IMG/VR virus record: IMGVR_UViG_2778260993_000007
Location: 1 to 42,288 of that record
DNA from: a virus
Taxonomy: Duplodnaviria; Heunggongvirae; Uroviricota; Caudoviricetes
Strand: one strand, 5' to 3'
DNA: 42,288 bases
Shown: one piece after another, positions 2,567-36,218 of the stretch
Numbering within the stretch: the first letter of the stretch is position 1
Layout: each line of letters opens with the position of its first letter
The notes under the pieces: generated by a model
Database searches by the model: none
The model's input: only the letters and a program-made list of their open reading frames with translations
Told to the model about the DNA's origin: nothing
Translations under genes and position numbers: made by a program

Positions 2567-2858
2567 AAACCACCCCACAACATCCTATGCCGCTATAGTC
2601 GCCACGGCGAAGGCCGTTACCTTTTGTGATACATTGGTCCCTGCGAACCGCGATCCTTGCACGTTCAACATCACCAGAAGCAACATCCATACACTGAAGC
2701 CAAAGGTGAGCGGCAATGCGGAATTGCCCTTTTTTCTCTCTTTCAATCGCGCGTTTTTCGATCTCTATCGCCGCAGGAGTAACGGCGACAATCTTTGAAG
2801 GGCTGCGCATTGAAACCTTGTTCATGTGATATTTTTCAAGTCGGCTTAACTTTCTCAC
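2559..2858 (-). CDS. Hypothetical protein
   Basis: 99 aa ORF filling the gap between methyltransferase and AlpA-like gene; alternative start codon with GAGGG upstream; no recognisable motif. Confidence 0.35.
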   Translation of the reverse strand: MRKLSRLEKYHMNKVSMRSPSKIVAVTPAAIEIEKRAIEREKKGQFRIAAHLWLQCMDVASGDVERARIAVRRDQCITKGNGLRRGDYSGIGCCGVVYD

Positions 2859-2967
2859 TTAATCCAACCCTCTCTGAAAATTAATGCCAGCAGATAAAGC
2901 CATGCTGAAACAGAGGCCAGGAATAAGTACCATCCTGACCATTTGCTCCAGTGCCTTAGCAGCGCAC

Positions 2968-3216
2968 TCATGCAGCGTTGCTCACGGGACGATATACACG
3001 TTGCTGAACAGGAGGTTTTTTACCCTGGAACTCTGCCGGGCTTGCTGCCTGACGTTCATCAAGCCAACGCTCAACTTCGTCACGGTTCCATGCGCAGCGT
3101 TTGTCAGTGATATACCAGCGTTTAGGAAATTCCCCTGCGCGCTCCATACGGTCGATAGTGCTCCATGACAGTGGCACCACCGCCAGGAGTTCCTTCTTAC
3201 CTAATGCACCTTTCAT
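2968..3216 (-). CDS. AlpA-family transcriptional regulator / excisionase-like protein
   Basis: 82 aa with HTH region (LSWSTIDRMERAGEFPKRW) typical of AlpA/phage excisionase-like proteins; sits in the integrase-proximal early operon. Confidence 0.7.
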   Translation of the reverse strand: MKGALGKKELLAVVPLSWSTIDRMERAGEFPKRWYITDKRCAWNRDEVERWLDERQAASPAEFQGKKPPVQQRVYRPVSNAA

Positions 3217-3265
3217 AAATACCTCTCTTGGTTGCAGTGCGGCGCGTGTGGCGCCGCGGTGGTGG

Positions 3266-4147
3266 TTACATAGATGTTTCGTTTAATTCTTCCCGACGAA
3301 CGCTGTAAACGTCGGTGGCTTTTGCCAGCAGTTCGTCATCATCTGAAAGTTTTTGTGCAATGTATTTGTAAGCCTTATCCAGTTCGGAGACAGTGCTGTA
3401 ATTCATCGCTGCGCTGGTAAAGGCCATCAGCATTTCTTCTGGATCACGGCTATCCGCTTTACGAGTTTGCTCATCAGGCTTTTTCACTGGTTTAGCGTTG
3501 ATCAGACTGTTCATTCCCGCAGCAGTAGTTGTTTGCGGAGTAATGTCTCGCTCAACGCGCGGTGCCGTTTCCTGTAATTCGTCAGGGGTGTAAACACCGA
3601 GAAGCACATCAGGAGCGTGCAGGCGAGCCCATCGTTTCGTGCAAAGATAGGCAAGCTGCTGGCGCGGATCCTGTTCCCACAATGGAGAGTTACGCACTCC
3701 GGCTTGCGCCATACTGATGGTAAGCTCACGGGGTTCTGCTTCTCCTTTAAGAACTGCTGACACAGTTACCGTCAGATTCGGTGATTTATCTGTTTTGCCG
3801 TTAACATTCGACCAGTCACCGCTCCAGCGATAATTCAGGCGTGTCGCCAGCAGGCTGGAAGAGGATACGACCGCGTTTACCAACTGTGCTTCGTAGCCTA
3901 ACGTTCCGTTTACCACATGCGTTTTCTGCGCCACGGCGAAAGGGTTCATTCCCCACTGTGCCGCCTGCATGGTCACCGCCAGACAATCGGCAGTTTTGCC
4001 TTCAAGATGTTTCGGTACAGTCGCTTTGCTTTGTGACATCAACTCCGCGAAACGCACCAGTTGATTCATGCCCTCCGGGCTGAAGATTGCCGCAGCAGTA
4101 CCTACAGTTGCACCTGGTTGTGATGTGATTGCGATATCATTGCTCAT
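3266..4147 (-). CDS. recT: RecT/Red-beta family single-strand annealing protein
   Basis: 293 aa; lambda Bet-like segment (APRVERDITP) and overall RecT/Bet-like composition; immediately downstream of an exonuclease partner with ATGA overlap. Confidence 0.75.
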   Translation of the reverse strand: MSNDIAITSQPGATVGTAAAIFSPEGMNQLVRFAELMSQSKATVPKHLEGKTADCLAVTMQAAQWGMNPFAVAQKTHVVNGTLGYEAQLVNAVVSSSSLLATRLNYRWSGDWSNVNGKTDKSPNLTVTVSAVLKGEAEPRELTISMAQAGVRNSPLWEQDPRQQLAYLCTKRWARLHAPDVLLGVYTPDELQETAPRVERDITPQTTTAAGMNSLINAKPVKKPDEQTRKADSRDPEEMLMAFTSAAMNYSTVSELDKAYKYIAQKLSDDDELLAKATDVYSVRREELNETSM

Positions 4148-4965
4148 ACGTACATATCCTGTTTACGTGCCCAGTCAGGGCGTTTAATAATTTCCACTCC
4201 GCCCCATTCATCGTTGATGCGGCATTCGTGATAGGTATTCAGATCCCGGCGGAACAGAGCGTGCCCGGCATCGACATCTGGCGCATCCAGCTCGAACACG
4301 CGTACCGGATACCGACCACAATCAATGCTTTCGCTCACGGCAAGAAAGAAAAAACCATGCGGCTGACCAGTAACCCTCATTGCGCCTTCGCGGTACATTG
4401 CGTCCTGCACGTGGTAGCGGAATTCCTCGATGTGGCGTGCAAAACGGTCCATATCTGCAACCTTTTTCACGTCGACGATCACGTTGTGCTCGTTCAGCCA
4501 TTTGTCTGGACGAATTCGGCACAACTCACCCGTCTCTTCATCGTTCCAGTACATTGATGCTTCGCAGTAACCAGGTGCTTCCAACATCCAGCGTGCCGCC
4601 GGGTGAGCCATTGCGCTATCACGCATCAGCTCTAGTTTCCGCCACTGCTCGGCATCAAGTACCGTAATCCCCATATCCGCCACATCACGAAGAAATGCCT
4701 CTTCGTCAGCTTTACCTTGTTTCGTCCGACGATCGAATTTCGGCGAAACAATGAAGCGTTTGTCGAACTCTCCAGGCTCCAGAAGAAGACAGTGCAATGC
4801 GGTTCCCATATCCAGTGCAGACTTTTTCTCTTCGTCTTCTGGTGCTGCCTGAACCCATTTAAGAAGCGCCGGATTCTTGGCAACCATGTCCAGTTGCGAC
4901 TTACTCACGCCGTCCCCGGCGTGGTAGTCTTCGTTGCTGATGTCGAAATAAATTCCCGGTTTCAT
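4144..4965 (-). CDS. YqaJ-like viral recombinase exonuclease (PD-(D/E)XK)
   Basis: 273 aa; typical partner gene upstream of recT; conserved acidic/lysine residues consistent with a PD-(D/E)XK nuclease. Confidence 0.75.
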   Translation of the reverse strand: MKPGIYFDISNEDYHAGDGVSKSQLDMVAKNPALLKWVQAAPEDEEKKSALDMGTALHCLLLEPGEFDKRFIVSPKFDRRTKQGKADEEAFLRDVADMGITVLDAEQWRKLELMRDSAMAHPAARWMLEAPGYCEASMYWNDEETGELCRIRPDKWLNEHNVIVDVKKVADMDRFARHIEEFRYHVQDAMYREGAMRVTGQPHGFFFLAVSESIDCGRYPVRVFELDAPDVDAGHALFRRDLNTYHECRINDEWGGVEIIKRPDWARKQDMYV

Positions 4966-5569: not shown

Positions 5570-6154
5570 TTATTGTTTGTTTTTTTCGTTCTGGTTGATG
5601 ACAAATTCAATGTAACTTTCGATCTTTGCCTTCTCTGTTTCAGGTAACAATGCGTAGCGCGAGCGGTCATAGTTGATAGTTGCAGGGTCATGCGGATGAA
5701 TCAGTAGTTCATATCCGTGACGCCCGAATGCAGATGCAACATTCTCCAGGGTGGAAATGGAAACGCTGACCTCATTGTTTAACAGGCGGCTTATTGTCAC
5801 CTGGGCGACGCCGGATGCGCGGTGAAGTTTTCCCTGAGTTGAAAGGTCGCGGCTTTCACTCATCCAGCGTTCCAGGTTGTGAGCTGCCAGCTGACCAATG
5901 TCGCTTGGTCCGACAGGCTGAAAACCTTCCTGAGAAAGCGAGCGATCGATATCAAGCCAGTTACGGGGTTTATTGGCGGCAGCTTCGATTTTTCGCGCAA
6001 CCTGGTCGCCGATAACCTTCTTGCCAAGAGCCCAGCGGTTTACCAGATTTGCCTGAGTTCCAAGTTTTTCTGCCATCCGCGTCTGAACACCATTGAATTC
6101 ACGGTCGATCAAGTCGTTGAGATTTTGCCTGCGGACGTCCTGGATACTTTTCAT
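5570..6154 (-). CDS. Prophage repressor (CI-like), tandem HTH, no S24 autopeptidase domain
   Basis: 194 aa; N-terminal XRE-type HTH (QTRMAEKLGTQANLVNRWALGKK) and a second HTH-like segment; divergent from Cro-like gene with operator repeats between; no Ala-Gly/Ser-Lys peptidase motifs seen. Confidence 0.7.
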   Translation of the reverse strand: MKSIQDVRRQNLNDLIDREFNGVQTRMAEKLGTQANLVNRWALGKKVIGDQVARKIEAAANKPRNWLDIDRSLSQEGFQPVGPSDIGQLAAHNLERWMSESRDLSTQGKLHRASGVAQVTISRLLNNEVSVSISTLENVASAFGRHGYELLIHPHDPATINYDRSRYALLPETEKAKIESYIEFVINQNEKNKQ

Positions 6155-13039: not shown

Positions 13040-13635
13040 TGATGTCTGCTGAACCTAAAACCTATAAACGCAAATCAACGCAATTTAAGCCACTAACAGC
13101 AATGCAGGAGGCTTATTGCCAGTCATACATCAAAACGCCTGAAAACCAGACTCAGGCAGCGATTAACGCAGGATTCTCCCCAAATACAGCGGCAGTTAAA
13201 GCCAGTGTCATGATGCGCGATGAACGCATTCAAAAACGGATTGCCGAGTTGATGGAGGAGCGCAACAAACGAATGCGCGTCAGTGCTGATTACGTTCTCA
13301 TGCGCCTGGTGGAGATCGACCAGATGGACGTGATCGACATCCTCAACGACGATGGGAGCCTTAAACCAATCCGTGAGTGGCCTAAAATCTGGCGCACTAC
13401 GCTTAGTGGCTTTGATCTGTCATCGACCATCATGAACATGAACGAGGATTCGATAGAGACAATCCTCAAAAAAATTAAATGGCCTGACAAGGTGAAGAAC
13501 CTTGAGCTGATTGGTAAGCATGTTGATGTCAACGCGTTCAAAGAACGTCTGGATGTTAATGTGAATGTGACAATTGCTGATCGCATAGCAGCAGCCAGGA
13601 AGCGACTCAAAGAACGTCAGGATGGTAATCAGTGA
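13039..13635 (+). CDS. Terminase small subunit
   Basis: Start refined to MMSAEPK; conserved small-terminase segment (AMQEAYCQSYIKTPENQTQAAINAGFSP); directly upstream of large terminase. Confidence 0.7.
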   Translation: MMSAEPKTYKRKSTQFKPLTAMQEAYCQSYIKTPENQTQAAINAGFSPNTAAVKASVMMRDERIQKRIAELMEERNKRMRVSADYVLMRLVEIDQMDVIDILNDDGSLKPIREWPKIWRTTLSGFDLSSTIMNMNEDSIETILKKIKWPDKVKNLELIGKHVDVNAFKERLDVNVNVTIADRIAAARKRLKERQDGNQ

Positions 13636-15107
13636 CAGATACAGCGTTATCTCCTGAAGAGCAGTTGATCGAGGATATTGCAGGGTTCACTCACGATCCG
13701 CTTGGCTATGCCCTCTATGCGTTCCCGTGGGGGGAAGAGGGGACTGAACTGGCACATGCTACCGGCCCACGTCAGTGGCAGGCCGATGCGTTCCGAGAGA
13801 TACGTGATCACCTGCAGAATCCAGAGGCGCGCTATCAGCCGCTTATGCTGGCACGCGCTTCGGGTCACGGTATTGGTAAATCAGCATTCATCTCAATGCT
13901 GATCAACTGGGGCATGTCCACTTGCGAGGATTGTAAGGTCGTGGTGACTGCCAACACCGACAACCAGCTACGAACGAAGACCTGGCCGGAAATTATCAAG
14001 TGGTCGAACCTTGCTATCACGAAAGACTGGTTTACCTGTACCGCTACCGCGATGTACAGCAATGACCCTGGGCACGACAAGCGGTGGCGGGCTGACGCAA
14101 TACCCTGGTCTGAGCACAACACTGAGGCATTCGCCGGACTACACAACGAGCGCAAACGCATCATCGTGGTATTCGATGAAGCGTCGAACATTGCGGATCT
14201 GGTGTGGGAAGTTGCCGAGGGTGCGCTAACGGACGAAGACACTGAGATTATCTGGGTGGCGTTCGGAAACCCGACGCGTAATACCGGACGTTTCCGCGAA
14301 TGTTTCCGCAAATATAAACACCGCTGGAAAACTGCGCAGATTGACAGCCGGACGGTGGAAGGCACCAACAAACAGCAGTTGCAGAAATGGGTTGATGACT
14401 ACGGGGAAGACAGCGACTTCGTTAAAATCCGTGTGCGCGGCATATTCCCTGATGCATCTGAATTGCAGTTTATCCCTACCGGTCTTACTGACGAGGCAAT
14501 GAAACGGGTGGTCACCGCTGCGCAGGTTGCACATGCTCCGGTGATAATCGGCGTTGACCCGGCATACTCAGGCGTTGATGACGCGGTGATATACCTGCGG
14601 CAGGGGCTGCACAGTAAGGTGCTGTGGACCGGCAACAAGACCACTGACGATCTGATTATGGCAAAGCGTATCGCTGACTTTGAAGACCAGTATCAGGCTG
14701 ACGCGGTGTTCATCGACTTCGGCTACGGTACCGGTCTGAAGTCAATCGGTGACGGCTGGGGTCGTACATGGCAACTTGTTCCGTTCGGCGGCGCGTCTAC
14801 TGACCCGCAGATGCTCAATAAGCGCGGGGAGATGTTCAATGCATGCAAGACATGGCTGAGGCTCGGCGGGATGCTGGATGACCAGGAAACAGCGGACGAC
14901 CTGTCGGCGGCAGAGTACAAAGTTCGCGTGGACGGTAAAATCGTTATCGAACCGAAGGAAGATATCAAGGAGCGGCTTGGGCGTTCGCCGGGTAAAGGCG
15001 ATGCGCTACTGCTGACGTTTGCTTTCCCGGTGTCGAAGCGCCTGCGACTTCCCGGGCAGCAGAACCAGCAAGGCAAGGCGCTTACCGAGTACGATCCCTA
15101 TGCTTAA
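13632..15107 (+). CDS. Terminase large subunit
   Basis: 491 aa; ATPase Walker-A-like motif (ARASGHGIGKS) and C-terminal nuclease region; coupled to small subunit. Confidence 0.9.
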   Translation: MTDTALSPEEQLIEDIAGFTHDPLGYALYAFPWGEEGTELAHATGPRQWQADAFREIRDHLQNPEARYQPLMLARASGHGIGKSAFISMLINWGMSTCEDCKVVVTANTDNQLRTKTWPEIIKWSNLAITKDWFTCTATAMYSNDPGHDKRWRADAIPWSEHNTEAFAGLHNERKRIIVVFDEASNIADLVWEVAEGALTDEDTEIIWVAFGNPTRNTGRFRECFRKYKHRWKTAQIDSRTVEGTNKQQLQKWVDDYGEDSDFVKIRVRGIFPDASELQFIPTGLTDEAMKRVVTAAQVAHAPVIIGVDPAYSGVDDAVIYLRQGLHSKVLWTGNKTTDDLIMAKRIADFEDQYQADAVFIDFGYGTGLKSIGDGWGRTWQLVPFGGASTDPQMLNKRGEMFNACKTWLRLGGMLDDQETADDLSAAEYKVRVDGKIVIEPKEDIKERLGRSPGKGDALLLTFAFPVSKRLRLPGQQNQQGKALTEYDPYA

Positions 15108-15181
15108 TCCGTTAGCGGGGATAATGACGGAGATATCCTCTGGTGAGGATAAAACAAATCCAGCTCATCGGCTGGCTGTTT

Positions 15182-15193
15182 GTGACATGTCAC
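15182..15193. repeat. 12-bp perfect palindrome GTGACATGTCAC (copy 2 of 3)
   Basis: Exact 12-mer just beyond the 3' end of moron gene 15198..15569. Confidence 0.6.
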
Positions 15194-15197
15194 GGTG

Positions 15198-15569
15198 TTA
15201 TTGCTCGCTTAACTTCTGCTTCAGTAAGTAACCTTCAAGCATCCAGATTTTGTTTACAGCATTCTGCCGGGCAATCTTCCGACCAATTTCCGCATCAAAG
15301 TTTTCCGGGCTTGCACAGGCGCTCTCTCCTGTGACGGTGAAGCCGTTGCGCAGCACCAGGACGCAGAACGTCAGCAGAGAAAGTGATTCGTGCGGCTGGT
15401 AGTTTACCTCTCCGCCAGTATGTTTCGCTTTTATGGCTTTGCCAAAGGCACCATCTTCTGCTGTGAAATATGCCTCCTGAGCAATAATGCCTTCGATATG
15501 GTCTGGCGTAACGCGCGGTGCCGTTTTGCCTTTCTCAACGATTTCTTTTTCGATTTGCTGGTCGTTCAT
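15198..15569 (-). CDS. Hypothetical moron protein (opposite strand inside packaging module)
   Basis: 123 aa; AAGGTGAG RBS; opposite orientation to flanking structural genes; function unrecognised. Confidence 0.55.
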   Translation of the reverse strand: MNDQQIEKEIVEKGKTAPRVTPDHIEGIIAQEAYFTAEDGAFGKAIKAKHTGGEVNYQPHESLSLLTFCVLVLRNGFTVTGESACASPENFDAEIGRKIARQNAVNKIWMLEGYLLKQKLSEQ

Positions 15570-15575
15570 AATCTC

Positions 15576-15602
15576 ACCTTAAAAAAATGCCCGGCGAACC
15601 GG
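15576..15602 (-). terminator. Hairpin plus T7 run immediately upstream of moron RBS (terminator or attenuator)
   Basis: Minus-strand GCCCGG-TTCG-CCGGGC followed by ATTTTTTT then AAGGTGAG RBS and ATG. Confidence 0.45.
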
Positions 15603-15693
15603 GCGAACTGGAAGCAATGAGTTATGCCTTCCGTGGCTGTACTGGTTTACAGCATGAAGTCATCGCAATGGCGTCCTGCTGTAAAAAGGGCGG

Positions 15694-15735
15694 TGATAGT
15701 TCTTCAAGGGAAACCATCACCGCCAAGCACCTGGA
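15694..15735 (-). terminator. Terminator downstream of tRNA-Arg
   Basis: Minus-strand 9-bp stem GGCGGTGAT...ATCACCGCC followed by TTTTT. Confidence 0.5.
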
Positions 15736-15767
15736 ACTTCTGGCATCACGGTCCTTAGGCGTGATTC

Positions 15768-15844
15768 TGGCGTGGCATGCAGGATTCGAACCTGCGACCA
15801 ACCGCTTAGAAGGCGATTGCTCTGTCCAACTGAGCTAATGCCAC
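15768..15844 (-). tRNA. tRNA-Arg (anticodon UCU)
   Basis: 77-nt cloverleaf on minus strand: acceptor GTGGCAT/ATGCCAC, D-arm GCTC...GAGC, anticodon loop CTTCTAA, T-arm GCAGGTTCGAATCCTGC, 3' GCCA; resembles but is not identical to E. coli argU. Confidence 0.8.
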
Positions 15845-16165
15845 AACGCTGAGAGCACTTAGCCTGTTAAGGCGCCACACTTTGTCGCGGCTCCATAAAT
15901 GCTCTCATCGTTGTACCTCGTCTCTTCCGAGGCGTCACACCGAATCGCCGGGATGGTGAATCCCCGTGCGCGGAATAAAACCGCTCGACTTGCACATTCC
16001 GGCTACCTGGTTCGTTTGCCCGAGCAAGGGAGGGTGCCCCTTAAACGTACCCAGACCGCTATCGGCGCATGTGCCATACGCCGTACTACTCAAAATAAAA
16101 GCTCACTCCACCTGTTCAATTTAACGACAAGCCAGTCAGGTTAGTAACCGGAATGAACTCTTTAG

Positions 16166-16180
16166 TTACCTGAAAGGTAA
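16166..16180. promoter_or_regulatory. Operator-like site upstream of head gene operon
   Basis: TTACC-TGAAA-GGTAA about 90 bp upstream of gene 16271. Confidence 0.5.
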
Positions 16181-16270
16181 TAATTCGCGCGTTAAATGTC
16201 AACTGTCTACGATAAATAAATCATATGTGGTTAAATTGGTAATGATTTAATTGCGTACGGAGTCATTGAT

Positions 16271-16477
16271 ATGTGCATGGGTAGCTCACCATCAGTGCCT
16301 GCAACACCAGAAGTTCAGGCAGCACCACAGGAGCAGGATGCCGCCGTTGTTGATGCCCGCGACGAAGAAACACGTCGCCGTCGCGCTGCTGCTGGTCGTA
16401 GTTCTACGCTGCTTACTGGTTCTCAGGGCGACACATCAACCGCTAATACCAGCGGTAAAACGCTGCTTGGTCAGTAA
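16271..16477 (+). CDS. Hypothetical small protein (low complexity)
   Basis: 68 aa; its RBS/start context CGGAGTCATTGA(T/A)ATG is repeated at the portal gene start. Confidence 0.4.
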   Translation: MCMGSSPSVPATPEVQAAPQEQDAAVVDARDEETRRRRAAAGRSSTLLTGSQGDTSTANTSGKTLLGQ

Positions 16478-16491
16478 CCGGAGTCATTGAA

Positions 16492-18171
16492 ATGGCGGAA
16501 ACAACTAAAGAGCGATTGAACAAACAGTTCGCACAACTTGAAAGCGAGCGTCAGTCGTTCGAGCCGCACTGGCGCGAGTTGAGTGATTACATCAACCCGC
16601 GTGGTTCCCGCTTTCTGACTTCAGAGGTCAACCGTAACGATCGACGCAATACACGCATTATTGATTCGACCGGGACTATGGCGGCGCGCACTCTCGCCAG
16701 CGGCATGATGTCAGGCATCACAAGCCCCGCGCGTCCGTGGTTTCGCCTGGCTACGCCAGATCCTGAAATGATGGATTATGGCCCTGTTAAGTTGTGGCTT
16801 GAGGCGGTGCAGAACCGCATGAACGATATGTTCAATAAGTCGAATCTCTACCAGTCTCTTCCGCAGTTATACGGAAGCCTCGGCACATACAGCACTGGTG
16901 CAATGGCAGTGCTGGAGGATGACGAGGACATCATTCGCACAATGCCATTCCCGATAGGCAGTTACTACCTGGCTAACTCACCTCGTGGCAGTGTTGACAC
17001 CTGTTTTCGCAAGTTCTCTATGACTGTTCGTCAGCTTGTTCAGGAGTTCGGGCTAAATAACGTCAGCGAATCCGTAAAAAGCATGTGGGAAAGCGGCACC
17101 TACGAGAAGTGGATCGAAGTGATGCATTCGGTTTACCCGAACATTGACCGCGATACATCGAAGCTGGATAGCAAGAACAAGCCATTCAAATCGGTTTATT
17201 ACGAGGTTGGCGGCGATAACGACAAGTTGTTGCGTGAGTCCGGATTCGATGAGTTTCCAATTATGGCTCCGCGCTGGGAAGTTAACGGCGAAGATGTTTA
17301 TGGATCATCATGCCCGGGTATGCTGGCGCTTGGACCTGTTAAGGCATTGCAGCTTCTCCAGAAGCGCAAGTCGCAGTTGATTGATAAAGCCACCAATCCG
17401 CCGATGGTTGCTCCGACTTCCCTCAAGAATCAGCGCGCCTCCCTTCTTCCTGGCGACATCACGTATATCGATCAGATTACTGGTCAGGATGGTTTCAGGC
17501 CTGCTTATCTGGTTAACCCCAGTACAGCAGATCTGGTGGCAGACATTCAGGACACTCGCCAAATCATTAACAGCGCCTACTTTGTCGATCTGTTCATGAT
17601 GTTGCAGAACATCAATACCCGCTCGATGCCTGTTGAAGCGGTGATCGAAATGAAAGAAGAAAAACTTCTGATGTTGGGGCCGGTTCTGGAGCGTCTGAAC
17701 GACGAATGTCTTAATCCTCTCATTGACCGCGCTTTCTCTATGATGGTGCGTAAAAACATGCTGCCGCCACCGCCTGACGCGATGGAAGGCATGCCCCTGA
17801 AGGTCGAATACATTTCCGTCATGGCTCAGGCGCAGAAGTCTATCGGCCTGTCCAGTCTGGCGTCCACGGTTAACTTCATTGGTCAACTTGCGCAAGCGAA
17901 ACCAGAAGCTCTCGACAAACTCAACGTTGATCAGGCGATCGATGCATTCGCTGATATGTCCGGAGTGTCTCCAACCGTCATTGTTCCGCAGGAACAGGTT
18001 GAGCAGGCTCGCCAGCAACGGGCACAGCAACAACAGCAGCAACAAATGATGGCGATGGGGATGGCGGCGGCACAGGGTGCCAAGACGCTAAGTGAAGCTA
18101 AAACTTCGGATCCGAGTGTTTTGTCAGCTATGGCGAATGCAGTTAGTGGTCAGGGTGGGCAATCACAATGA
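16492..18171 (+). CDS. Portal (head-to-tail connector) protein, T7 gp8-like
   Basis: 559 aa; C-terminal Gln/Met-rich tail (QQQQQQQMMAMGMAAAQG) as in T7 gp8; position after terminase. Confidence 0.8.
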   Translation: MAETTKERLNKQFAQLESERQSFEPHWRELSDYINPRGSRFLTSEVNRNDRRNTRIIDSTGTMAARTLASGMMSGITSPARPWFRLATPDPEMMDYGPVKLWLEAVQNRMNDMFNKSNLYQSLPQLYGSLGTYSTGAMAVLEDDEDIIRTMPFPIGSYYLANSPRGSVDTCFRKFSMTVRQLVQEFGLNNVSESVKSMWESGTYEKWIEVMHSVYPNIDRDTSKLDSKNKPFKSVYYEVGGDNDKLLRESGFDEFPIMAPRWEVNGEDVYGSSCPGMLALGPVKALQLLQKRKSQLIDKATNPPMVAPTSLKNQRASLLPGDITYIDQITGQDGFRPAYLVNPSTADLVADIQDTRQIINSAYFVDLFMMLQNINTRSMPVEAVIEMKEEKLLMLGPVLERLNDECLNPLIDRAFSMMVRKNMLPPPPDAMEGMPLKVEYISVMAQAQKSIGLSSLASTVNFIGQLAQAKPEALDKLNVDQAIDAFADMSGVSPTVIVPQEQVEQARQQRAQQQQQQQMMAMGMAAAQGAKTLSEAKTSDPSVLSAMANAVSGQGGQSQ

Positions 18172-24595: not shown

Positions 24596-25161
24596 TGTGT
24601 AACCCAGCCATCGCTTTGGTTGCCGTCACAGTGGCATCCACAGCCGCGTCAATGTACAGCCAGAGCAAGCAGGCAAAATACCAGTCAGCCATAGCTGATC
24701 GGAATGCTGAAATTGCTGAAGCTCAGGCACAGGATTCAATCAATCGTGGGAATATTGAAGCGGATCAGCGTCGTCGTGAAATGCGTCAACGCTCAGGCAC
24801 TGCGGCGGCCACTATGGGGGCTACCGGTGCGGAATTAAGTAGCGGAACAGCTCTTGACGTTTTTGCGGATAATGCTCAGTTCGGCACTCTTGATGCGTTA
24901 ACGACAGTGAATAATGCTCAGCGTGAGGCATATGGGTATCAGGTTCAGGGAATGAATGCTCAGGCACAGGGGGCTGCTGCTCAGTCGGCTGCTAAATCAT
25001 CGATGACCAGCACTTTGTTAACGGCACCACTAAAAGCATACGGTGCATATAAGTTGGGTAGCGGAAGTATCAATCCGATTAGTAAGCAAGGAAACACGCC
25101 AATGTTATCTAACTCAGGTTTTATGAATTCTGACTCCCGATTCAAAATAGGAGGTTACTGA
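24595..25161 (+). CDS. Internal virion protein (gp14-like, membrane-associated)
   Basis: 188 aa; N-terminal hydrophobic segment, Ala/Gln-rich; position before large ejection proteins. Confidence 0.5.
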   Translation: MCNPAIALVAVTVASTAASMYSQSKQAKYQSAIADRNAEIAEAQAQDSINRGNIEADQRRREMRQRSGTAAATMGATGAELSSGTALDVFADNAQFGTLDALTTVNNAQREAYGYQVQGMNAQAQGAAAQSAAKSSMTSTLLTAPLKAYGAYKLGSGSINPISKQGNTPMLSNSGFMNSDSRFKIGGY

Positions 25162-27869
25162 TGCCTGTTGTTCCTACTACATCCGGACGCCAGGTGCAAA
25201 GTCGTGGTGTGCAAACCGGTGGTTTTCAGATCTTCGATGTTCCTCAAGCAGGTCAGGTGCTGGCGAATGTCGCAGATCAGTATGCGGTGGCATATGGTGA
25301 AGCCAGGCAGAAAGCGAATGTTGCATTGTCTCAGGATGCCATCCTTCAGCTTAATCAGCGCAGCAATGAACGTCTTTATAACCCTCAAACCGGTTTTTAT
25401 GCACAACAAGGCAAAAATGCGATTGGTAAGGGGCAAGAGTACATATCTGGATTTGATCAGGATGTGGAAGAAATAGCTGCTTCATTGACTGATGAAGCAG
25501 CAAGAAATATGTTTTTGCAACAAGCCAGAACACAGAAAATTCAGTTCAGTACTGGAGTTCTCAGACATGAGATAGGGCAGACAAATGCCTATGAAGATGA
25601 GCAATATCAGGCAACGAGAAAATTATGGATACAAAATGAAGCGGATGCCTGGAATGACCCGCAAACTGCCACTTTAGCCAGAAATTCCAGAATGGTAGCC
25701 ATTGCCAGATATGGAGCAGCCAGGGGATGGTCACAAGAACGCATTCTGGAAGAAATAGAAAGTGATGATCGCAGTGCCACAGAAATGCGGGCGAAGAATT
25801 ATGCCGCTGCTAATCCAGAAGGATGGCTAAATGGTCTGTTTCAGAAAAATGATTCTGGAGGCATGGACATGCGTGCCATACGCCTTGTTGAATCAGGTGA
25901 TCGACATTTTAATCCTGATGGTAGTCTTCTTGAAGGACCGATAACATCTTCTGGAGAGAGAGCCCAGGGGAAATACCAGTTAATGCCGGGCACAGGGAAA
26001 GAACTGGCGGCCAAGCGTGGCGTTGAATACAACCCTACGGACGAACAACAGCATGAAATGCTCGCCAGTGACTATGTAAATCAACTGTATGGTAAGTACG
26101 GCTCCGAAATATTGACCGGAGCAGCATATAACTGGGGGATGGGTAACGTGGATAAACTGATCGCCAAAGTCGGTGATCCGCGTAAAGGTGAAATATCAGA
26201 AGAAGAATTTATCCGAAATCTTCCATCAGAAACACAAGGGTGGCTTTCCCGATATAGAAAAAATAAAACTGGAATGGATCCGCTGACTATTTATCAAATA
26301 GATAACCTTGCTAATAGTCAGATAGAAAAGCAAAGGAAGTTAATATTAGAACAGCTTGAGCCAGCTATTAATAACACCATGGCCCAGCTATATAACGGTG
26401 AGGTTCCAGATTATATACCGGCTCAGGAGACTATCATCAGGGGGTATGGAAAAAATGCAGATAAAATAATCAATCAACTGGATATAGCGATTGATAACGC
26501 GAGAATATTCCAGGCAATTCAGTATTTACCTCCTTCTCAGCAGCAAGAAGAAATGCAGAAAGTGAAGCCTGAGGTTAACGATCCTCACTATGCGTTAAAA
26601 CTCGATGCTTACGGAAAATTGTCTGCATTGCTTCAGAGATCAAATGAAGCAATTCAGGCGCAACGGGATTCACGCAGATTCAATGAGGCGCTGACAATAG
26701 GTGAAAAATTAGACCCAAGCAACAAGTCAATGCAGAAAGCTGCTGATTACACAGAAATGGCGCAGAACTTTCGTATTAATGATGCCTCCACTCATGATGG
26801 GGTTGTTCGGCTTGTGGCTCAGACTGGCATAATGCCTTCGCAGGTCATCACGCAGCTTTCAGCAGTATCCCGATCCAGCAATCAGGAAGTGGTTAAAAAT
26901 GCGGCGGAACTGTTTAGTCGGTTATATGAAACAGACAATGCATCTATTGGAAATATGCCGAAGGATATGCAGGGTTTTTATCTGACTGTTAAGCAACTAA
27001 CTGATGCAGGGATGTCTTCAGATGCTGCTATTGTGGAAGCGCAGAGTAAGACATACAACCAGACAGATGCACTAAGGGCGCAGCTCTCATCTGTTCAGAG
27101 TACAAGAGAATACAAAAAAGAGCGTGACAGCGCAGCCAATTCTGCTGTCAGCAATATGGCTCATTGGCTTCGCTGGGATCCGTCTGCGGATGACCAGACG
27201 CCGGAAGCAGCGCTCTTTCGCAATGACTATCAGATGCTGTATGACGTTAACTATCGCCTTGCTGGTGGTAACGCTGACGTAGCGAAGCAAATGACCAACC
27301 AGCAGATAGCCCGCACCTGGAGTATCAGCGAGGTCAACGGGGAAGCACAGTTTATGAAATATGCACCGGAGGCGCTTTATCAATATGGGCCGTCAGGCTG
27401 GATTGCAGCGCAATGGAAAGCTGAAAAAGAAAAAATCATGTATGGCGATGACTTGCATAAACCAGCTCCTTCATTTAACCGACCTTCAACTGAGGCTGGT
27501 GCATTGGGACTGAATACACCACGCTCACTGGTTGGAGGTGAGTTGATTCTTGTTCCTGATTTATCAACTCCGAGAGATAAGCTTTATTCAGTTGTGATCA
27601 GAACAAAAGATAAAGATGGTATTACGAGGGATGATTTATTTTATGACAAGCATGGAAGACTGATGCGCTGGGGGCCATCACTAGAAGATTGGGAACCTTA
27701 TAAGAAAATGCAGCAGGAACGGGAGCAGCACGAGCAGGAAGAAATTATGCGTGGACAGGCTATACAAAACTTCAAAGACAAGCATCGTGCTCTGGATGAG
27801 CAGTATCAGCGCCTGCATAACGAACGTATGGACAAATTTAAAGATTACTTTTCGTGGGGATCTAAATAA
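25161..27869 (+). CDS. Internal virion (ejection) protein with lytic transglycosylase domain
   Basis: 902 aa; SLT-type motif region (ESGDRHFNPDG...AQGKYQLMPGT...YNWG). Confidence 0.65.
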   Translation: MPVVPTTSGRQVQSRGVQTGGFQIFDVPQAGQVLANVADQYAVAYGEARQKANVALSQDAILQLNQRSNERLYNPQTGFYAQQGKNAIGKGQEYISGFDQDVEEIAASLTDEAARNMFLQQARTQKIQFSTGVLRHEIGQTNAYEDEQYQATRKLWIQNEADAWNDPQTATLARNSRMVAIARYGAARGWSQERILEEIESDDRSATEMRAKNYAAANPEGWLNGLFQKNDSGGMDMRAIRLVESGDRHFNPDGSLLEGPITSSGERAQGKYQLMPGTGKELAAKRGVEYNPTDEQQHEMLASDYVNQLYGKYGSEILTGAAYNWGMGNVDKLIAKVGDPRKGEISEEEFIRNLPSETQGWLSRYRKNKTGMDPLTIYQIDNLANSQIEKQRKLILEQLEPAINNTMAQLYNGEVPDYIPAQETIIRGYGKNADKIINQLDIAIDNARIFQAIQYLPPSQQQEEMQKVKPEVNDPHYALKLDAYGKLSALLQRSNEAIQAQRDSRRFNEALTIGEKLDPSNKSMQKAADYTEMAQNFRINDASTHDGVVRLVAQTGIMPSQVITQLSAVSRSSNQEVVKNAAELFSRLYETDNASIGNMPKDMQGFYLTVKQLTDAGMSSDAAIVEAQSKTYNQTDALRAQLSSVQSTREYKKERDSAANSAVSNMAHWLRWDPSADDQTPEAALFRNDYQMLYDVNYRLAGGNADVAKQMTNQQIARTWSISEVNGEAQFMKYAPEALYQYGPSGWIAAQWKAEKEKIMYGDDLHKPAPSFNRPSTEAGALGLNTPRSLVGGELILVPDLSTPRDKLYSVVIRTKDKDGITRDDLFYDKHGRLMRWGPSLEDWEPYKKMQQEREQHEQEEIMRGQAIQNFKDKHRALDEQYQRLHNERMDKFKDYFSWGSK

Positions 27870-30800
27870 TGCCGTTCTATCCTGTATCTGAATCAAACAA
27901 TAACGGATTTATTTCTGCTGGTCGCGCCATTCCTGAACCTGATGAACAGAGTTTTGATGTGCATCCGCCAGAAGGTAAGAACCCTGAGCCTCGCCAAAAA
28001 GAGCCTTCATTGCTTGCCGCAGCAATACGACAGAACAATATTCTGGCTGGTTTTTTCCGTCCTGCCAGACAGTTTGAACCGGTCGAGGGTTATAACCCAT
28101 ATGCTGATAAAAATGAGTTGCACGGCTATGAATACTGGGGTGCGAAATTTGCAGGTTCCCGCTCGCCAGAAGAAACAGCGTGGATTAAGCAGCAGATAGA
28201 TGATGAAAATGAAGATCGGCGTTTTATCTCTGAAGCAGGCTTAGCTGGTGGAATTGCCAGTGCAACAGCGATGCTTTTTGACCCGGTTACTGTTGCGTCA
28301 ATGTTTATCCCAGGTGCTCAAGGAGGGGCACTGGCGCGTATTGGCTCACAGATTGCGATTGGTGCTGCCGGTACTGCATTAAGCGAGGTTGTACTGAATA
28401 ATCAGCAAATAACACGCTCATGGGGTGAAAGTGCCGCTCACGTTGCAGCGGGTGCGATAATGAGCGGCGTGTTTGCCAGTGCTGGTGTTGCGCTTTCGCC
28501 ATCTGTCCGGGCTGCAGCCACGCGTGAGGTTGCTGATGCTCTTGATAATATGAGCATTACATCAGCGACTGACAGGGCTGCCGCTTCGCTTTCTGATGGT
28601 GGTAGTGTTGGTGCTATGAAAATTGATACAGCGACTCTGGATGATTTAACCCCTGTTTCCGGTGGGCGGGTTGGAAAGGCTGCATGGAAAGCAGGGAGCT
28701 ATCTTACTCCTTTGACAAGGTTAATGGAGTCTCCGTCCAAGACGGTGCGAAAAACAACGCTGGAGTTAGCCGAAAATAATTTCACCCTTAAAGGAAATGA
28801 AAGGGGGATTGAAACACCGGTAGCTGTAGAAACCCGTACACGTGGATGGCAGCGTGAAGAAGCTGCTGTTGTTGTCGGAAATAAACAGGCATACGCAAAG
28901 TATAAAGCTGATGGTGGTGACATGAGTTTTGATTCATTTCGTCAGCAGGTTGGGAATGCTATGCGAAGCGGTGATGTGCATGCTAATCCTGTTGTTCAGG
29001 AAACGGCGCAGGCGATGCGAACTGTATTAAATCGGGTAAAAGTTGAAATGCAAAAGCTTGGTTTATTGCCGCCAGATGAAGAACTGAAAGCATTAGGCCA
29101 GGCAAGCTATTTCCCACGCATATATAAAGTTGGAAAAATAATCAGTGAACGCGATAAATTTCGACGCATTTTGGTTGACTGGTGGTCGAGAGGAAATAAA
29201 AAACTGGATCCTGAGGATGCTGAAATTGCAGCGGATATCGTAATTAATAAAATTACTGGTGCTAAGGTTCCACAGGATTTTGTCAGCGTATTTTCTGTAA
29301 AAGCCGCAGGTAGTACGAAAGAAAGAACATTAAATGTTCCTGATAGTCTTATCAGGGATTATCTTGAAAGTGATGTGAATTACGTGCTGCAACGTCATAT
29401 CCGTGAAGCGGCAGCAGAAATTGAGTTGACGAGAACATTTGGCAAACGAACTATGACTGAGCGTCTGCAATTAATTGAGGACGAATATGACAGTCTGTTA
29501 CGGGAAGTGCCTGAAAAAATAAAGGCGAAATATGACGAAAGTGTGGCAAATCTGAAAGCACGTTATGAGAGCAATGGTGAAGTTGTTCCTCAGGGTAAAC
29601 TCGATTCATTAATGCGAAAGTACGAAAAGGAATTACGGAAAGAACAGTCCAGACTTTCAAAATCAAGAGCAAATGATCTCAGAGACATAACAGCATTACG
29701 CGATCGTCTTGTTGGTACATATGGGATGCCTGATGATCCGTCTTCGTTTTTTGTTCGTGCTGGCGCTTTTCTGCGGGATGTGAACTTCACGACCAAACTC
29801 GGTGGAATGACAGTATCAGCTATTCCAGATCTGGCCAGAGGGGTTATGGTTAATGGTTTCCGTAACACCATGAAAGGCTATGCTTCTCAGATATCCCAAT
29901 CACCGGCATTTAAGGCCAGCAAAGAAGATATGTTGAAGATGGGGATTGGATTGGAAGCTGTACTACATTCACGTTCTCGTGCAATTGGTGATCTTGTTGA
30001 CAGTTCTTCCAGGACAACAGCAGTCGAAGCAGGAATGGAGCGAATTACTGATGCCTTCGGCAAGCTGACACTCATGGATCGATTTAATGACATAAACAAA
30101 TCCATGAACGGAATGCTCACGTCAGACGGTATTTTGTCTGGTGCGTTTTCTGCACGTCGCATGGCAAAACTCGGTATCAACGACAATATGGCTGCGCGTA
30201 TTCGCAGTGAGTTCGAGAAACATGGTGAGGTAATTGATGGATGGCACATTGGTAACTTTGATAAATGGGACGATCAGTACGTTGCCGGAGTATTCCAGTC
30301 AGCGGTTCTGAAAGACGTTAATAACACTATCATCACCCCCGGTATTGGTGACACACCTTTATGGGCGAGTACTCCAATGGGGCGAACGATATTTCAGTTT
30401 AAATCATTCACAACGGCTTCATACAACCGTGCGCTACTTGGTGGGTTACAGGAAGGAACTGCGCAATTTTATTATGGCACTGCATTTCAGATTGCTCTTG
30501 GCTCACTGGTCTATGCGCTTAAAGAAGCATCGAAAGGGAAAAATGTTGACTGGTCACCAGAGAAGCTGGTGCTTGAGGGTATAGATAGATCCGGTATTCT
30601 TGGGCCATTGATGGAATATAACAACATGGCTGAAAAGGCGACTGGTGGTGCTGTTGGGCTGGGGGCTTTATTTGGCACTGGCACACAGTCCAGGTATGCC
30701 AGTCGTGGATTCGTAGGATCTCTATTCGGACCGTCATTTGGTCTTGCGGATAGCATCATTGATGTGACCTCAGGAGTGTTGAATGGTGATGCCGGTGATC

Positions 30801-30892
30801 GTATTGTGCATAATGTCCGAACCCTGATACCCGGCAATAACCTGTTCTGGATTGCGCCACTAATAAACCAGGTGGATCCGGTGATGCGTTAA
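27869..30892 (+). CDS. Large internal virion / ejection protein (gp16-like)
   Basis: 1007 aa; size and position after the transglycosylase-containing protein. Confidence 0.6.
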   Translation: MPFYPVSESNNNGFISAGRAIPEPDEQSFDVHPPEGKNPEPRQKEPSLLAAAIRQNNILAGFFRPARQFEPVEGYNPYADKNELHGYEYWGAKFAGSRSPEETAWIKQQIDDENEDRRFISEAGLAGGIASATAMLFDPVTVASMFIPGAQGGALARIGSQIAIGAAGTALSEVVLNNQQITRSWGESAAHVAAGAIMSGVFASAGVALSPSVRAAATREVADALDNMSITSATDRAAASLSDGGSVGAMKIDTATLDDLTPVSGGRVGKAAWKAGSYLTPLTRLMESPSKTVRKTTLELAENNFTLKGNERGIETPVAVETRTRGWQREEAAVVVGNKQAYAKYKADGGDMSFDSFRQQVGNAMRSGDVHANPVVQETAQAMRTVLNRVKVEMQKLGLLPPDEELKALGQASYFPRIYKVGKIISERDKFRRILVDWWSRGNKKLDPEDAEIAADIVINKITGAKVPQDFVSVFSVKAAGSTKERTLNVPDSLIRDYLESDVNYVLQRHIREAAAEIELTRTFGKRTMTERLQLIEDEYDSLLREVPEKIKAKYDESVANLKARYESNGEVVPQGKLDSLMRKYEKELRKEQSRLSKSRANDLRDITALRDRLVGTYGMPDDPSSFFVRAGAFLRDVNFTTKLGGMTVSAIPDLARGVMVNGFRNTMKGYASQISQSPAFKASKEDMLKMGIGLEAVLHSRSRAIGDLVDSSSRTTAVEAGMERITDAFGKLTLMDRFNDINKSMNGMLTSDGILSGAFSARRMAKLGINDNMAARIRSEFEKHGEVIDGWHIGNFDKWDDQYVAGVFQSAVLKDVNNTIITPGIGDTPLWASTPMGRTIFQFKSFTTASYNRALLGGLQEGTAQFYYGTAFQIALGSLVYALKEASKGKNVDWSPEKLVLEGIDRSGILGPLMEYNNMAEKATGGAVGLGALFGTGTQSRYASRGFVGSLFGPSFGLADSIIDVTSGVLNGDAGDRIVHNVRTLIPGNNLFWIAPLINQVDPVMR

Positions 30893-31994: not shown

Positions 31995-32328
31995 TTTACA
32001 CACCTTAACCAAATACGGTTGATTTTAATATTTCTAAGCGCTTATCATTACCTTTTCGGTAAATTTACATCGCATTCCTCTTGTGCCATAGTAATCGGGC
32101 ACTGGCAAAATCCAGTGCCGGGATTGGTCTCCCGGATTACTACAGAGGCACATATGCCGCATAAGCGGTTTTTTTATGTGTAAAGCGCACCTATTCTATG
32201 GTGGGCTGTGTGGGGGCACCGAAAGGTGCGCCGGGTCCTTTGTAGCCGGTAAGACCAACTCTGCACAGTTCACCACCATCTGATTGGTCTCAGCGGTGGT
32301 GATTAACCTAACTACAAAGGTGATCGCC
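31995..32328. repeat. Inverted repeat IR-2, left copy (antirepressor leader)
   Basis: About 330 bp, roughly 85-90 percent identical to the reverse complement of 34790..35125. Confidence 0.65.
32048..32062. promoter_or_regulatory. Operator-like site in leader of BRO-type antirepressor gene
   Basis: TTACC-TTTTC-GGTAA adjacent to putative -35 TTTACA. Confidence 0.5.
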
Positions 32329-33354: not shown

Positions 33355-33987
33355 TTAATGCAGTTTATCTTTGCTTATAACCAGTAGTCTGTGGGTATGC
33401 ACATCTTTATCACTGCCCCAACAGAAATCAGCCCACTGGCTATAGAAATCATCCCATGATGTCATGAAGCTAAGAGGTCTATCTTCTTCAGAGCCATCTG
33501 AAACGTATACATTATATCCTGGGGTGTTTATAGCCCAAGAAATCATTCTTTCCCAGAATCTTCTCCCATCGATTGTTTGTTGCTCATCAGATACAACGAT
33601 CGCATATTGCTCTAGGAAGAACTGAAAAAAAATCTGAGGCAAACCATGAACAGCACGGTCATGAATAACATTAGGCGTACGCCATACCATGATCTGCGTA
33701 CATGTTCTTTTGGCTTCGACGATATCTTCCCGAAAGATTAACTTAACCGCATACACCGTTTCTGGAGTATCGCTGGTAGTAATCATTCTGTAATGATCGC
33801 CATTACAAGATTTTACAAGGCGATAACCATAAGGTGTTGTGAATCCCGGAAGAACGAAATCAACCACACCTTTCGCTAAGTAGCTTTCGGTGTGACTAGT
33901 GTTCTTCTCAGACATGTTCAGTTTTCTATCGAAATCTGCTTCTGGGATAATGTATGGCATCGCTTTTCTTGTTGTATTTGTTCTCAT
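33355..33987 (-). CDS. Hypothetical protein at centre of antirepressor island
   Basis: 210 aa; own operator-like site upstream (about 34047..34061) and strong terminator directly after stop; no recognised domain. Confidence 0.55.
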   Translation of the reverse strand: MRTNTTRKAMPYIIPEADFDRKLNMSEKNTSHTESYLAKGVVDFVLPGFTTPYGYRLVKSCNGDHYRMITTSDTPETVYAVKLIFREDIVEAKRTCTQIMVWRTPNVIHDRAVHGLPQIFFQFFLEQYAIVVSDEQQTIDGRRFWERMISWAINTPGYNVYVSDGSEEDRPLSFMTSWDDFYSQWADFCWGSDKDVHTHRLLVISKDKLH

Positions 33988-34789: not shown

Positions 34790-35125
34790 GATGGCGTCTC
34801 CACTTAGCGAATTACATCACCACCGCTGAGACCAATCAGATGGTGGTGAACTGAACGGAGTTGGTCTTACCGGCCTAAGTGGTACCGGCGTCCTTTCGGA
34901 CCCCCATTCAGCCCACCATAATTCTGGCATGACTGTGCTATACGCATAAAAAAACCACGTCTGGCGTGGTATGCGCCACTTAGTAATCCGGGAGACCAAT
35001 CCCGGCACTGGATTTTGCCAGTGCCCGATTACTATGGCACAAGAGGAGTGCAATGTAAATTTACCGCAAAGGTAATGATAAACGCGAAGAAATATTAAAA
35101 TCAACCGTATTTGGTTGATTGCGTT
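34790..35125. repeat. Inverted repeat IR-2, right copy (antirepressor leader)
   Basis: See left copy; ends at the AntA-type gene start codon. Confidence 0.65.
35061..35075. promoter_or_regulatory. Operator-like site in leader of AntA-type antirepressor gene
   Basis: TTACC-GCAAA-GGTAA; inverted counterpart of the site at 32048. Confidence 0.5.
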
Positions 35126-35917: not shown

Positions 35918-35939
35918 GCCGCTCTTGCGGCCTTTAAAT

Positions 35940-36197: not shown

Positions 36198-36218
36198 CTT
36201 ATCTTCTCCATGCAATAA

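Follow-up and report, generated by a model that had tools for sequence, protein, structure and literature searches.

Between the large terminase (TerL) and portal genes of a 42,288-nucleotide (nt) viral sequence (IMG/VR record IMGVR_UViG_2778260993_000007; this whole stretch is hereafter called the window), the minus strand carries a pseudoknotted RNA of ~240 nt that represents an unannotated family. It is followed by a tRNA-Arg(UCU) gene, terminator-like hairpins and a gene of the Acb4 family. Whereas the tRNA and the Acb4-family gene belong to well-known kinds, the RNA does not: it has no match in Rfam and no annotation, and its conserved strings appear in no paper of the searchable literature. 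About one in three complete E. coli genomes carries it, as do Shiga-toxin phages and the well-studied phage P1, and it may be a new transcription-control or host-takeover RNA.

By its sequence, the window is an E. coli prophage of the Uetakevirus (epsilon15/phiV10) type. Over the segment 15108-16270, identity is 95.7% to Escherichia phage phiV10 and 97-98% to prophages of 223 complete E. coli genomes, and the arrangement of this gap is kept in phiV10 and those 223 genomes at 95-98% identity. An earlier note on the same segment, made from its letters alone, is confirmed as to what it observed and proved partly right in how it interpreted this.

Structure and covariation of the RNA

The earlier note had pointed to ~400 bp without convincing open reading frames (ORFs) and had suggested that they could hold a small RNA, or else a degraded tRNA or attachment remnant. 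Indeed, only short ORFs (81, 52, 52 and 42 amino acids (aa)), none of them with support, are found in 15845-16270, and indels among its homologues that are not multiples of three (core lengths 156-178 nt) show the stretch to be non-coding. The suggestion of a small RNA was borne out, in that the first ~240 nt match a covariance model. Rather than a remnant, the stretch holds a multi-helix, pseudoknotted RNA of 240 nt that is common to lambdoid phages and phage P1. Its parts, all on the minus strand, are as follows.

15845..16086, minus: structured RNA of ~242 nt, reaching the first base of the tRNA (RNAalifold, covariance model R1)
16083-16063, minus: P1, hairpin CGGCRUAUGGCACAUGYGCCG
16059-16051 with 16010-16000, minus: P2, a pairing that encloses a variable arm
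15999-15989, minus: invariant single-stranded GAAUGUGCAAG (given also as GGAAUGUGCAAG)
15989-15934, minus: P3 and an H-type pseudoknot; P3 encloses a variable arm, and the loop xACC pairs with GGUx
15933-15915, minus: P4, hairpin with loop GAAGAG
15914-15898 with 15860-15845, minus: P5, long stem with a hypervariable tip of about 20 to 300 nt

A consensus structure calculated with RNAalifold from a MAFFT alignment of 17 diverse copies contains 46 pairs, 15 of which show compensatory changes. Such changes occur in every helix, and the arms vary in length while the junction sequences are invariant. The covariance model R1, built on P1-P4, scores 143.6 bits on the window (E 5e-45) at 15910-16086(-). 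Among 83 distinct sequences, 98.9% of cells are paired, versus 30-44% when partners are slid by 1-3 columns, and double changes are present at 11 pairs. The pseudoknot pair is CG in 59 of these sequences, AU in 21 and unpaired in 0; its change from CACC/GGUG to AACC/GGUU is seen in E. coli, Kosakonia and Buttiauxella. Because many G-U pairs fit the minus strand only, we assign the RNA to that strand. Single-sequence folding of the stretch gave z = -2 on either strand and did not resolve the strand, so strand and structure were taken from covariation. Single-stranded segments are likewise near-invariant (GGUAGCCGGAAUGUGCAAG, UGGCACAUG and the GAAGAG loop), even in loci retrieved via a different part of the RNA; UGGCACAUG, at the top of helix P1, is nearly invariant in species-representative genomes retrieved in this manner.

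These data bear on the view that the region is regulatory DNA only, composed of divergent promoters and operators, combined with a recombination scar of mosaic phages, and that the structure is functionless. Truncated RNA copies do occur at mosaic junctions (epsilon15 and loci L059, L071 and L077), and 16166-16270 is promoter/operator DNA. However, compensatory changes throughout the helices, pairing that is maintained across genera, variable arms between invariant junctions and strand-specific G-U pairs render this explanation very improbable.

Searching Rfam 15 at E<=10 with positions 15000-16600 of the window and 2850-3560 of the lambdoid locus L131 yielded only chance-level matches (E>=0.08) apart from the tRNA (15771-15844). 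At gathering thresholds, the whole window gave isrK and C4 elsewhere and only the tRNA in this region. Thus, the Rfam scan proposed in the earlier note recovers the tRNA, but no other family there. A weak RyhB-like hit is at chance level and is accounted for by a hairpin at 15610..15632. In the searchable literature, the conserved 19-mer and 11-mer strings led to no paper on the RNA, nor did queries on the phiV10 tRNA-Arg, the epsilon15 RNase III/integration host factor (IHF) annotation or P1 trnI-ban transcripts.

The loop of the P2 arm (16020-16045) shares a motif, UUCCCUUGA(UGC), with the loop of the downstream hairpin T1 (15695-15712). The two UUCCCUUGA(UGC) repeats exactly delimit a deletion in epsilon15, by which the RNA, the tRNA and half of T1 have been lost (compare L003:1501).

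Distribution of the RNA

The RNA is present in 1837 of 5426 complete E. coli genomes (34%), and its places in these include 554 on plasmids of about 90-100 kb. It is not annotated in the RefSeq E. coli genomes, where nearly all of the rows shown are without any feature. E. coli K-12 does not carry it, and the e14 and CPS-53 prophages lack it. Among phages, 79 records carry the RNA and none annotates it; these comprise Uetakeviruses, lambdoid phages including Stx2a, Stx2c and Stx2k converters, and P1, P7, D6, RCS47 and SJ46. Of 24 species-representative genomes with the RNA, 22 are from Enterobacterales, including Klebsiella, Citrobacter, Enterobacter, Kosakonia, Kluyvera, Phytobacter, Buttiauxella and Erwinia. 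An exact 19-mer in metagenome-assembled genomes labelled 'Oscillospiraceae' and 'Bacillota' (L145, L157) most likely reflects contamination of the bins by enterobacterial prophages.

Positions 15845-16084 are 82% identical to a segment of cdtI, mEp460, Ayreon, 2H10 and many Stx2c phages, in which the tRNA is absent. Epsilon15 lacks the equivalent of window 15718-16051. Two tandem RNA copies about 800 nt apart (3993-4155 and 4800-4960) are found on one viral contig (L021), and one Phytobacter ursingii genome has three copies on three contigs (L139, L158, L159). Several deposited ORFs that lie over the tRNA or the RNA are probably miscalled genes, namely PhiV10p04 (L001 2672-2923) and mEp460_037 (L133 31040-31408); the same probably holds for Tyrion gp54 (L007 1850-2011) and SPN1S_0004 (L009 1547-1717).

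Genomic context in lambdoid phages and phage P1

A pattern scan of IMG/VR returned 120 loci, which form the basis of our survey of contexts. About 40 are of the Uetakevirus type, and nearly all others (about 80) have the RNA behind a cI-type repressor gene. This gene, encoding a helix-turn-helix (HTH) domain and Peptidase_S24, ends 110-260 nt upstream of the RNA on the same strand. Downstream of the RNA, these lambdoid loci carry early-left genes (yfdP/Q/R, ParB-like and Ea22-like). In locus L131, two exact TTGC-N7-GCAA sites are located between the cI terminator and the RNA, close to the latter, and the only other exact copy is in the cro-cI gap. Because exact sites are confined to these two places, we regard the promoter ahead of the RNA as PL/OL. 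The RNA of L131 is followed, in order, by a cloverleaf-like domain, a homologue of T1, a second long hairpin with a U-run and, immediately after it, the yfdP ribosome-binding site.

Terminators therefore lie between the RNA and the first ORF both in the window (T1 and T2) and in L131, and by a strict rule 93 of 107 loci have at least one terminator in this interval. No promoter is evident after the terminators. The first downstream genes of mEp460, Stx2c and Stx2a_1447 include no N-like ORF or Pfam match. For N-less phages with such an early-left operon, the mechanism has been described as unknown and possibly put-like (Casjens and colleagues, PMC12315714).

In phage P1 (L161, AF234172, 71009-71294; L130:2999-3183), the P1-P4 core of the RNA occupies an unannotated 287-bp gap between trnI and ban, directly before ban. 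This gap belongs to the ban operon, which is under C1 control and includes a dicF-like region and three tRNAs.

Putative promoter and operator of the leftward unit in the window

The RNA of the window is preceded on its own strand by the following elements.

16174..16202, minus: sigma-70-like promoter of the leftward unit (TTGACA at 16202-16197, N17, TACCTT at 16179-16174)
16166..16180, no strand assigned: operator-like palindrome TTACCTGAAAGGTAA, a copy of TTACC-N5-GGTAA; its minus-strand reading is TTACCTTTCAGGTAA (16180-16166)
16087..16165, minus: predicted 5' leader of ~80 nt, from the putative transcription start to P1
16181..16270, no strand assigned: near-invariant, AT-rich divergent control region (AATTAAATNATTACCAATTTAACCACATATGATTTATTTA) upstream of the 68-aa gene and the portal operon, with invariant alignment columns

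The promoter's -10 element sits within the palindrome, and alignment shows that the -35 element, the spacing and the operator are kept in Klebsiella, Enterobacter and Salmonella relatives. The promoter scan also gave an overlapping alternative, TAGACA-18-AATTAT. The 5' leader varies in length among relatives, with epsilon15 and PAT1 being ~150 nt longer here. An 'RNaseIII' feature annotated in epsilon15 was considered and dropped; it falls within an insertion in the leader that is absent from the window.

In total, the window holds 18 matches to TTACC-N5-GGTAA versus 0.68 expected (0 of 100 shuffles), at the positions below.

5436, 5498, 6210, 6258, 6595, 8517, 8579, 13007, 13025
16166, 31462, 32048, 34047, 35061, 35154, 36274, 39083, 39325

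Copies flank ORF 5570-6154(-), the presumed repressor gene, and adjoin both isrK/C4 RNA modules. In epsilon15, the equivalent site was annotated as repressor-binding by its annotators. Since the promoter overlaps one of the 18 palindromes, the leftward unit is probably repressed in the lysogen and expressed early, and operator positions likewise point to a repressor-controlled early context. The 18 copies are spread in a way that resembles a dispersed regulon with operators of the P1 C1 style, rather than one immunity region.

The tRNA, cloverleaf-like domains and terminators

Beyond the RNA, the leftward unit continues with the elements listed here.

15768..15844, minus: tRNA-Arg(UCU) with encoded CCA (ARAGORN; Rfam RF00005 70 bits, gathering threshold 29, E 2e-13)
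15745..15765, minus: P6, conserved covarying hairpin AUCACG...CGUGAU just after the tRNA
15681..15724, minus: T1, 14-bp terminator-like hairpin GGCGGUGAUGG...CUAUCACCGCC followed by CUUUUUAC, 43 nt after the tRNA
15610..15632, minus: small conserved hairpin GGAAGGCA...UUGCUUCC between T1 and T2
15581..15604, minus: T2, intrinsic terminator GCCCGGTTCGCCGGGC followed by ATTTTTTT, with 6 G-C pairs, a UUCG loop and U7
15198..15569, minus: 123-aa gene of the Acb4 family, PF13876 (N4 gp49 / Sf6 gp66 family; Pfam and predicted fold)
15151..15175, minus: T3, hairpin CCAGCCGATGAGCTGG followed by ATTTGTTTT, just after the Acb4-family gene

The minus-strand tRNA-Arg(UCU) named in the earlier note is accepted by both ARAGORN and Rfam RF00005, and it is annotated as tRNA-Arg in RefSeq E. 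coli genomes. It has the D-loop AGUUGGACA, the anticodon loop CUUCUAA and a discriminator G followed by CCA, and carries the identity elements for arginyl-tRNA synthetase (ArgRS), namely A20, C35 and G/A73. The T1 stem covaries among relatives, and its loop holds UUUCCCUUGA. T2, which is the hairpin with a T7 run that had been noticed immediately before the start of the 123-aa ORF (15604-15581), ends two bases before the AAGGUGA ribosome-binding site of that ORF and is kept in all Uetakevirus relatives aligned. No promoter was found between T2 and the 123-aa ORF. The T3 hairpin was also flagged as terminator-like on the plus strand after TerL.

In copies outside phage P1, the RNA is followed either by tRNA-Arg(UCU) or by a domain that varies strongly and is closed by the stem GUUGUGGU/ACCACAAC. 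These domains carry D-arm-like and T-arm-like hairpins, some with the canonical GGUUCGAUUCC loop. In lambdoid phages they are called neither tRNA nor transfer-messenger RNA (tmRNA) by ARAGORN, nor tRNA by Rfam, and we therefore term them cloverleaf-like only. Across the copies compared, the tRNA or cloverleaf domain is followed by a P6-type hairpin and then T1. The P5 tip and the cloverleaf domain tolerate insertions of 90-300 nt (L008 (PAT1), L009 (SPN1S), L083, L085, L087 and L066), some of which carry canonical T-arm sequences (GGTTCGATTCC), as if tRNA fragments had repeatedly been captured or had decayed.

Given that the RNA directly abuts the tRNA-Arg 5' end in the window and many relatives, it could be a dedicated 5' leader that acts in folding, stability or processing of the tRNA and sets its level only. 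However, most lambdoid copies have no functional tRNA behind them, the tRNA in phage P1 is upstream and of a different kind, and the RNA is more conserved than what follows it. We therefore judge this explanation to be quite improbable, if somewhat less so than that of functionless regulatory DNA.

Two further ideas on T1 were dropped. A T-box resemblance (UGGUACCGC in T1 of some copies) proved to be merely a covarying stem, and an attenuator in which P6 pairs with the 5' strand of T1 suits the window but is not conserved in other variants.

A possible role in terminator read-through

We tentatively propose that the RNA is a cis-acting, polymerase-modifying element that resembles put or EAR (eps-associated RNA) in action and is unrelated to them in structure, a reading that we consider well short of established. 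Positions 15151-16202 would form a single leftward accessory transcription unit, whose sigma-70 promoter would be silent in the lysogen and fire early after induction or infection. The transcript would comprise, in order, the ~80 nt leader, the ~242-nt pseudoknotted RNA, tRNA-Arg(UCU), the small hairpin, T1, T2 and the Acb4-family gene. RNase P might cut exactly at the RNA/tRNA junction, where the tRNA 5' end abuts the RNA, and the tRNA would supply AGA decoding or replace a lost host tRNA. By modifying, in cis, the RNA polymerase that transcribes it, the RNA would let this enzyme pass T1 and T2 and reach the cargo gene; in lambdoid relatives, polymerase modified in this manner would enter the early-left operon that lacks N. 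The argument for such a leader is that downstream genes without another evident promoter start right after strong terminators, so that read-through must be allowed.

The put sites of HK022 offer the closest comparison of context. They are likewise non-coding and structured, and are located just downstream of a repressor-controlled early promoter in a lambdoid phage without N, followed by terminators and early genes (PMC9378689). The read-through that put promotes in cis is blocked by mutations in the zinc-binding domain of the beta' subunit. However, put is about 70 nt, has two stem-loops and occurs twice per genome (putL and putR, on the PL and PR sides), whereas the RNA of the window is about 240 nt, has five helices and a pseudoknot, generally occurs once per genome and is followed by a tRNA or cloverleaf. 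EAR is a processive antitermination leader of Bacillus for which read-through has been proposed or shown. Like the RNA of the window, it is a larger pseudoknotted leader, and its terminator read-through involves no dedicated protein, but it belongs to another host phylum and has another fold, and the region has no EAR hit in Rfam.

Several observations weigh against a cis-acting antiterminator. In the complete genome of mEp460, R1 detects one RNA copy and no counterpart at PR, unlike HK022 with its putL and putR. The RNA also has three times the size of put, and HK022 yields no match to R1. It is always located next to a tRNA or cloverleaf, an arrangement that suggests release of a stable RNA, for which a cis antiterminator has no need. 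The core in phage P1 is without a P5 stem and without a downstream terminator. In viable epsilon15-type phages, a deletion has taken the RNA, the tRNA and half of T1 but spared T2, and the Acb4-family gene is intact; from this it follows that the cargo gene either is not strictly dependent on the RNA or is silent in those phages. In the window, a processive complex would also have either to halt at T3, which is unremarkable, or to continue in antisense direction through the terminase genes. Finally, binding of a repressor to the palindrome is a prediction from sequence.

Alternative roles for the RNA

Some of these same observations fit a stable, trans-acting non-coding RNA, which would be the first product of the early promoter, be cut out by tRNA-processing enzymes and bind a conserved host or defence factor, thus serving host takeover or anti-defence. 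RNase P, cutting where the downstream tRNA or cloverleaf begins, would set it free; in phage P1, 3' processing of the upstream tRNA-Ile would do so. T1 and T2 would merely end the RNA gene, with the cargo expressed by leaky read-through. This scheme suits the finding that the RNA invariably adjoins a tRNA or the GUUGUGGU/ACCACAAC cloverleaf in each of three unrelated genome contexts, and it likewise suits the near-invariant single strands (GGUAGCCGGAAUGUGCAAG, UGGCACAUG and the GAAGAG loop), the predicted anti-defence sponges encoded by neighbouring genes and the loss of the RNA from epsilon15-type phages that keep T2 and the cargo gene. The ROOL and GOLLD phage RNAs are also found beside tRNAs. 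However, if the RNA gene ended in terminators between PL and the early-left operon, the genes of this operon, for which no other promoter is evident, would be cut off, and RNase P cleavage at cloverleaves that ARAGORN and Rfam do not recognise is conjecture. We hold this role to be possible but, on the present evidence, slightly less so than action in cis. Both could hold, as put retains its activity even when it is no longer tethered to the nascent transcript (PMC9378689).

Comparison with ROOL and GOLLD can be drawn further. Both are structured prophage non-coding RNAs of unknown function, typically located beside tRNA genes; unlike the RNA of the window, which has no Rfam match, they are 500-800 nt in length and come mostly from Firmicutes and relatives.

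The 3' strand of P5 raises another possibility. In 65 of 86 distinct copies, this strand (window 15845-15862 and homologues), although drawn paired, reads (G)UGCUCUY..GUUGUGG. The RNA could therefore be a leader that recruits Nus factors in the manner of lambda nut or rrn, with P4 as a boxB-like hairpin, YGCUCUYW in the P5 3' strand as a boxA-like element and GUUGUGG as a boxC-like element. A NusB/E/A/G assembly would then shield a long untranslated RNA-plus-tRNA transcript, similar in kind to that of an rrn operon, against Rho and terminators. YGCUCUYW is at the P5 position in those 65 sequences, and in some copies the stretch is UGCUCUUU, the same as the opening 8 nt of rrn boxA. Yet the boxA-like stretch, for which a GCUCUUUA-like element would be expected to be single-stranded, is base-paired in P5 and covaries with its partner, and several variants, among them GCGCUCCC and CGCCGUUU, no longer carry the motif. 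Owing to the shared ancestry of the sequences, the 65/86 count is weak evidence, and the first downstream genes of the three phages examined for N encode no N-like protein. A Nus-recruiting leader thus appears improbable, though not to the degree of a mere tRNA leader.

Taken at its broadest, the cis-acting reading would make the RNA a third, structurally unrelated class of polymerase-modifying antiterminator that replaces N in a large group of lambdoid phages (Stx2a, Stx2c and Stx2k phages, cdtI, mEp460 and probably those with LLS/ST64B-type early-left operons), and that was captured, together with a tRNA-type processing signal and terminators, as a portable anti-defence expression cassette in Uetakeviruses and in the P1 ban operon; in its other form, the synthesis has RNase P release an early RNA that serves anti-defence or host takeover. 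We consider this synthesis speculative and rather unlikely as a whole. The fixed place of the RNA, first after a repressor-controlled early promoter and ahead of terminators, nevertheless makes a published question testable, namely how N-less lambdoid phages without known put sites pass early terminators. If a processed, stable RNA is the true product, then an early phage RNA would be acting on a conserved host target.

The Acb4-family gene and its cargo slot

The earlier note had placed a minus-strand 123-aa ORF of unrecognised function in the terminase-portal gap. The ORF is present at 15198-15569(-), but its function can be recognised: it matches PF13876 with 119.5 bits (gathering cut-off 27; E 8.6e-35) over residues 20-120 and profile positions 1-82 of 82, and thus belongs to the family of the Acb4 sponge against the cyclic-oligonucleotide-based antiphage signalling system (CBASS). 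An AlphaFold2 (AF2) model of the protein has a pLDDT of 83.6, and in a Foldseek search of the PDB, ranks 1-13 are all SPO1 Acb4 9e4w (probability 1.0, TMt 0.60-0.68). A direct phmmer search finds the same Acb4 structure at E 0.006. SPO1 Acb4 is a tetrameric sponge for CBASS cyclic dinucleotides and the founding member of PF13876 (Chang et al., PMC11722364), and 8 of 8 tested PF13876 homologues bound 3'3'-cyclic GMP-AMP (cGAMP) (PMC11722364). The window's predicted sponge shares its family profile and predicted fold, but only about 22% sequence identity, with SPO1 Acb4. As predicted from its family, the 123-aa product most likely sequesters CBASS cyclic dinucleotides.

PhiV10 also has an Acb4-family cargo gene, and epsilon15 has another PF13876 member in the equivalent slot. 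In Klebsiella phage ST512-KPC3phi13.3 (L006:1135-1656), a Tad2-like gene (PF11195, anti-Thoeris; E 4e-26) is located downstream of an equivalent RNA-tRNA-terminator module. Because the Acb4-family gene of the window, phiV10 and epsilon15 is exchanged for a Tad2-like gene in this Klebsiella relative, the TerL-portal gap of Uetakeviruses appears to be a swap-in slot for predicted anti-defence sponges, and this slot would be driven by the RNA-tRNA-terminator module.

The gene had been called a moron. Its own terminator and opposite orientation agree with that term, but expression in the lysogen is doubtful because the only plausible promoter is overlapped by a copy of the dispersed operator palindrome. 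Early expression suits an anti-defence cassette better than it does a lysogen-expressed moron.

The tRNA and codon usage

In 36 ORFs of the window, AGA and AGG occur at 8.1 and 4.6 per 1000 codons. The corresponding values for E. coli are about 2 and about 1, such that these codons are 3-4 times more common in the phage ORFs, and the earlier proposal that the tRNA supplements AGA/AGG decoding is plausible. They are concentrated in 25161-30892, 33355-33987 and 35189-38927 (tail and accessory genes), with 10 AGA among the 210 codons of ORF 33355-33987, and head genes have none. This clustering suggests that the tRNA serves horizontally acquired, AT-richer genes. Alternatively, given its anti-defence neighbours, the tRNA may replace a host tRNA hit by defences, and it may also act as a processing signal. 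As with other phage tRNA genes, which serve rare codons or replace destroyed tRNAs, this is a bona fide tRNA-Arg(UCU) in a temperate phage with AGA/AGG use above that of its host; it differs in being within a conserved RNA-tRNA-terminator module, in which relatives have non-tRNA cloverleaves instead.

Flanking genes and other RNA modules

The genes that flank the leftward unit are TerS and the following.

13632-15107, plus: TerL ORF
16271-16477, plus: 68-aa ORF ahead of the portal gene
16492-18171: portal gene (Pfam Head-tail_con, E 1.6e-187)

Elsewhere in the window, isrK and C4 antisense RNA modules form an inverted pair at 32099-32280(+) and 34839-35024(-) (Rfam 61-75 bits). This pair suggests two antirepressor control units, similar to immI of the P1/P7 type, in a single Uetakevirus prophage.

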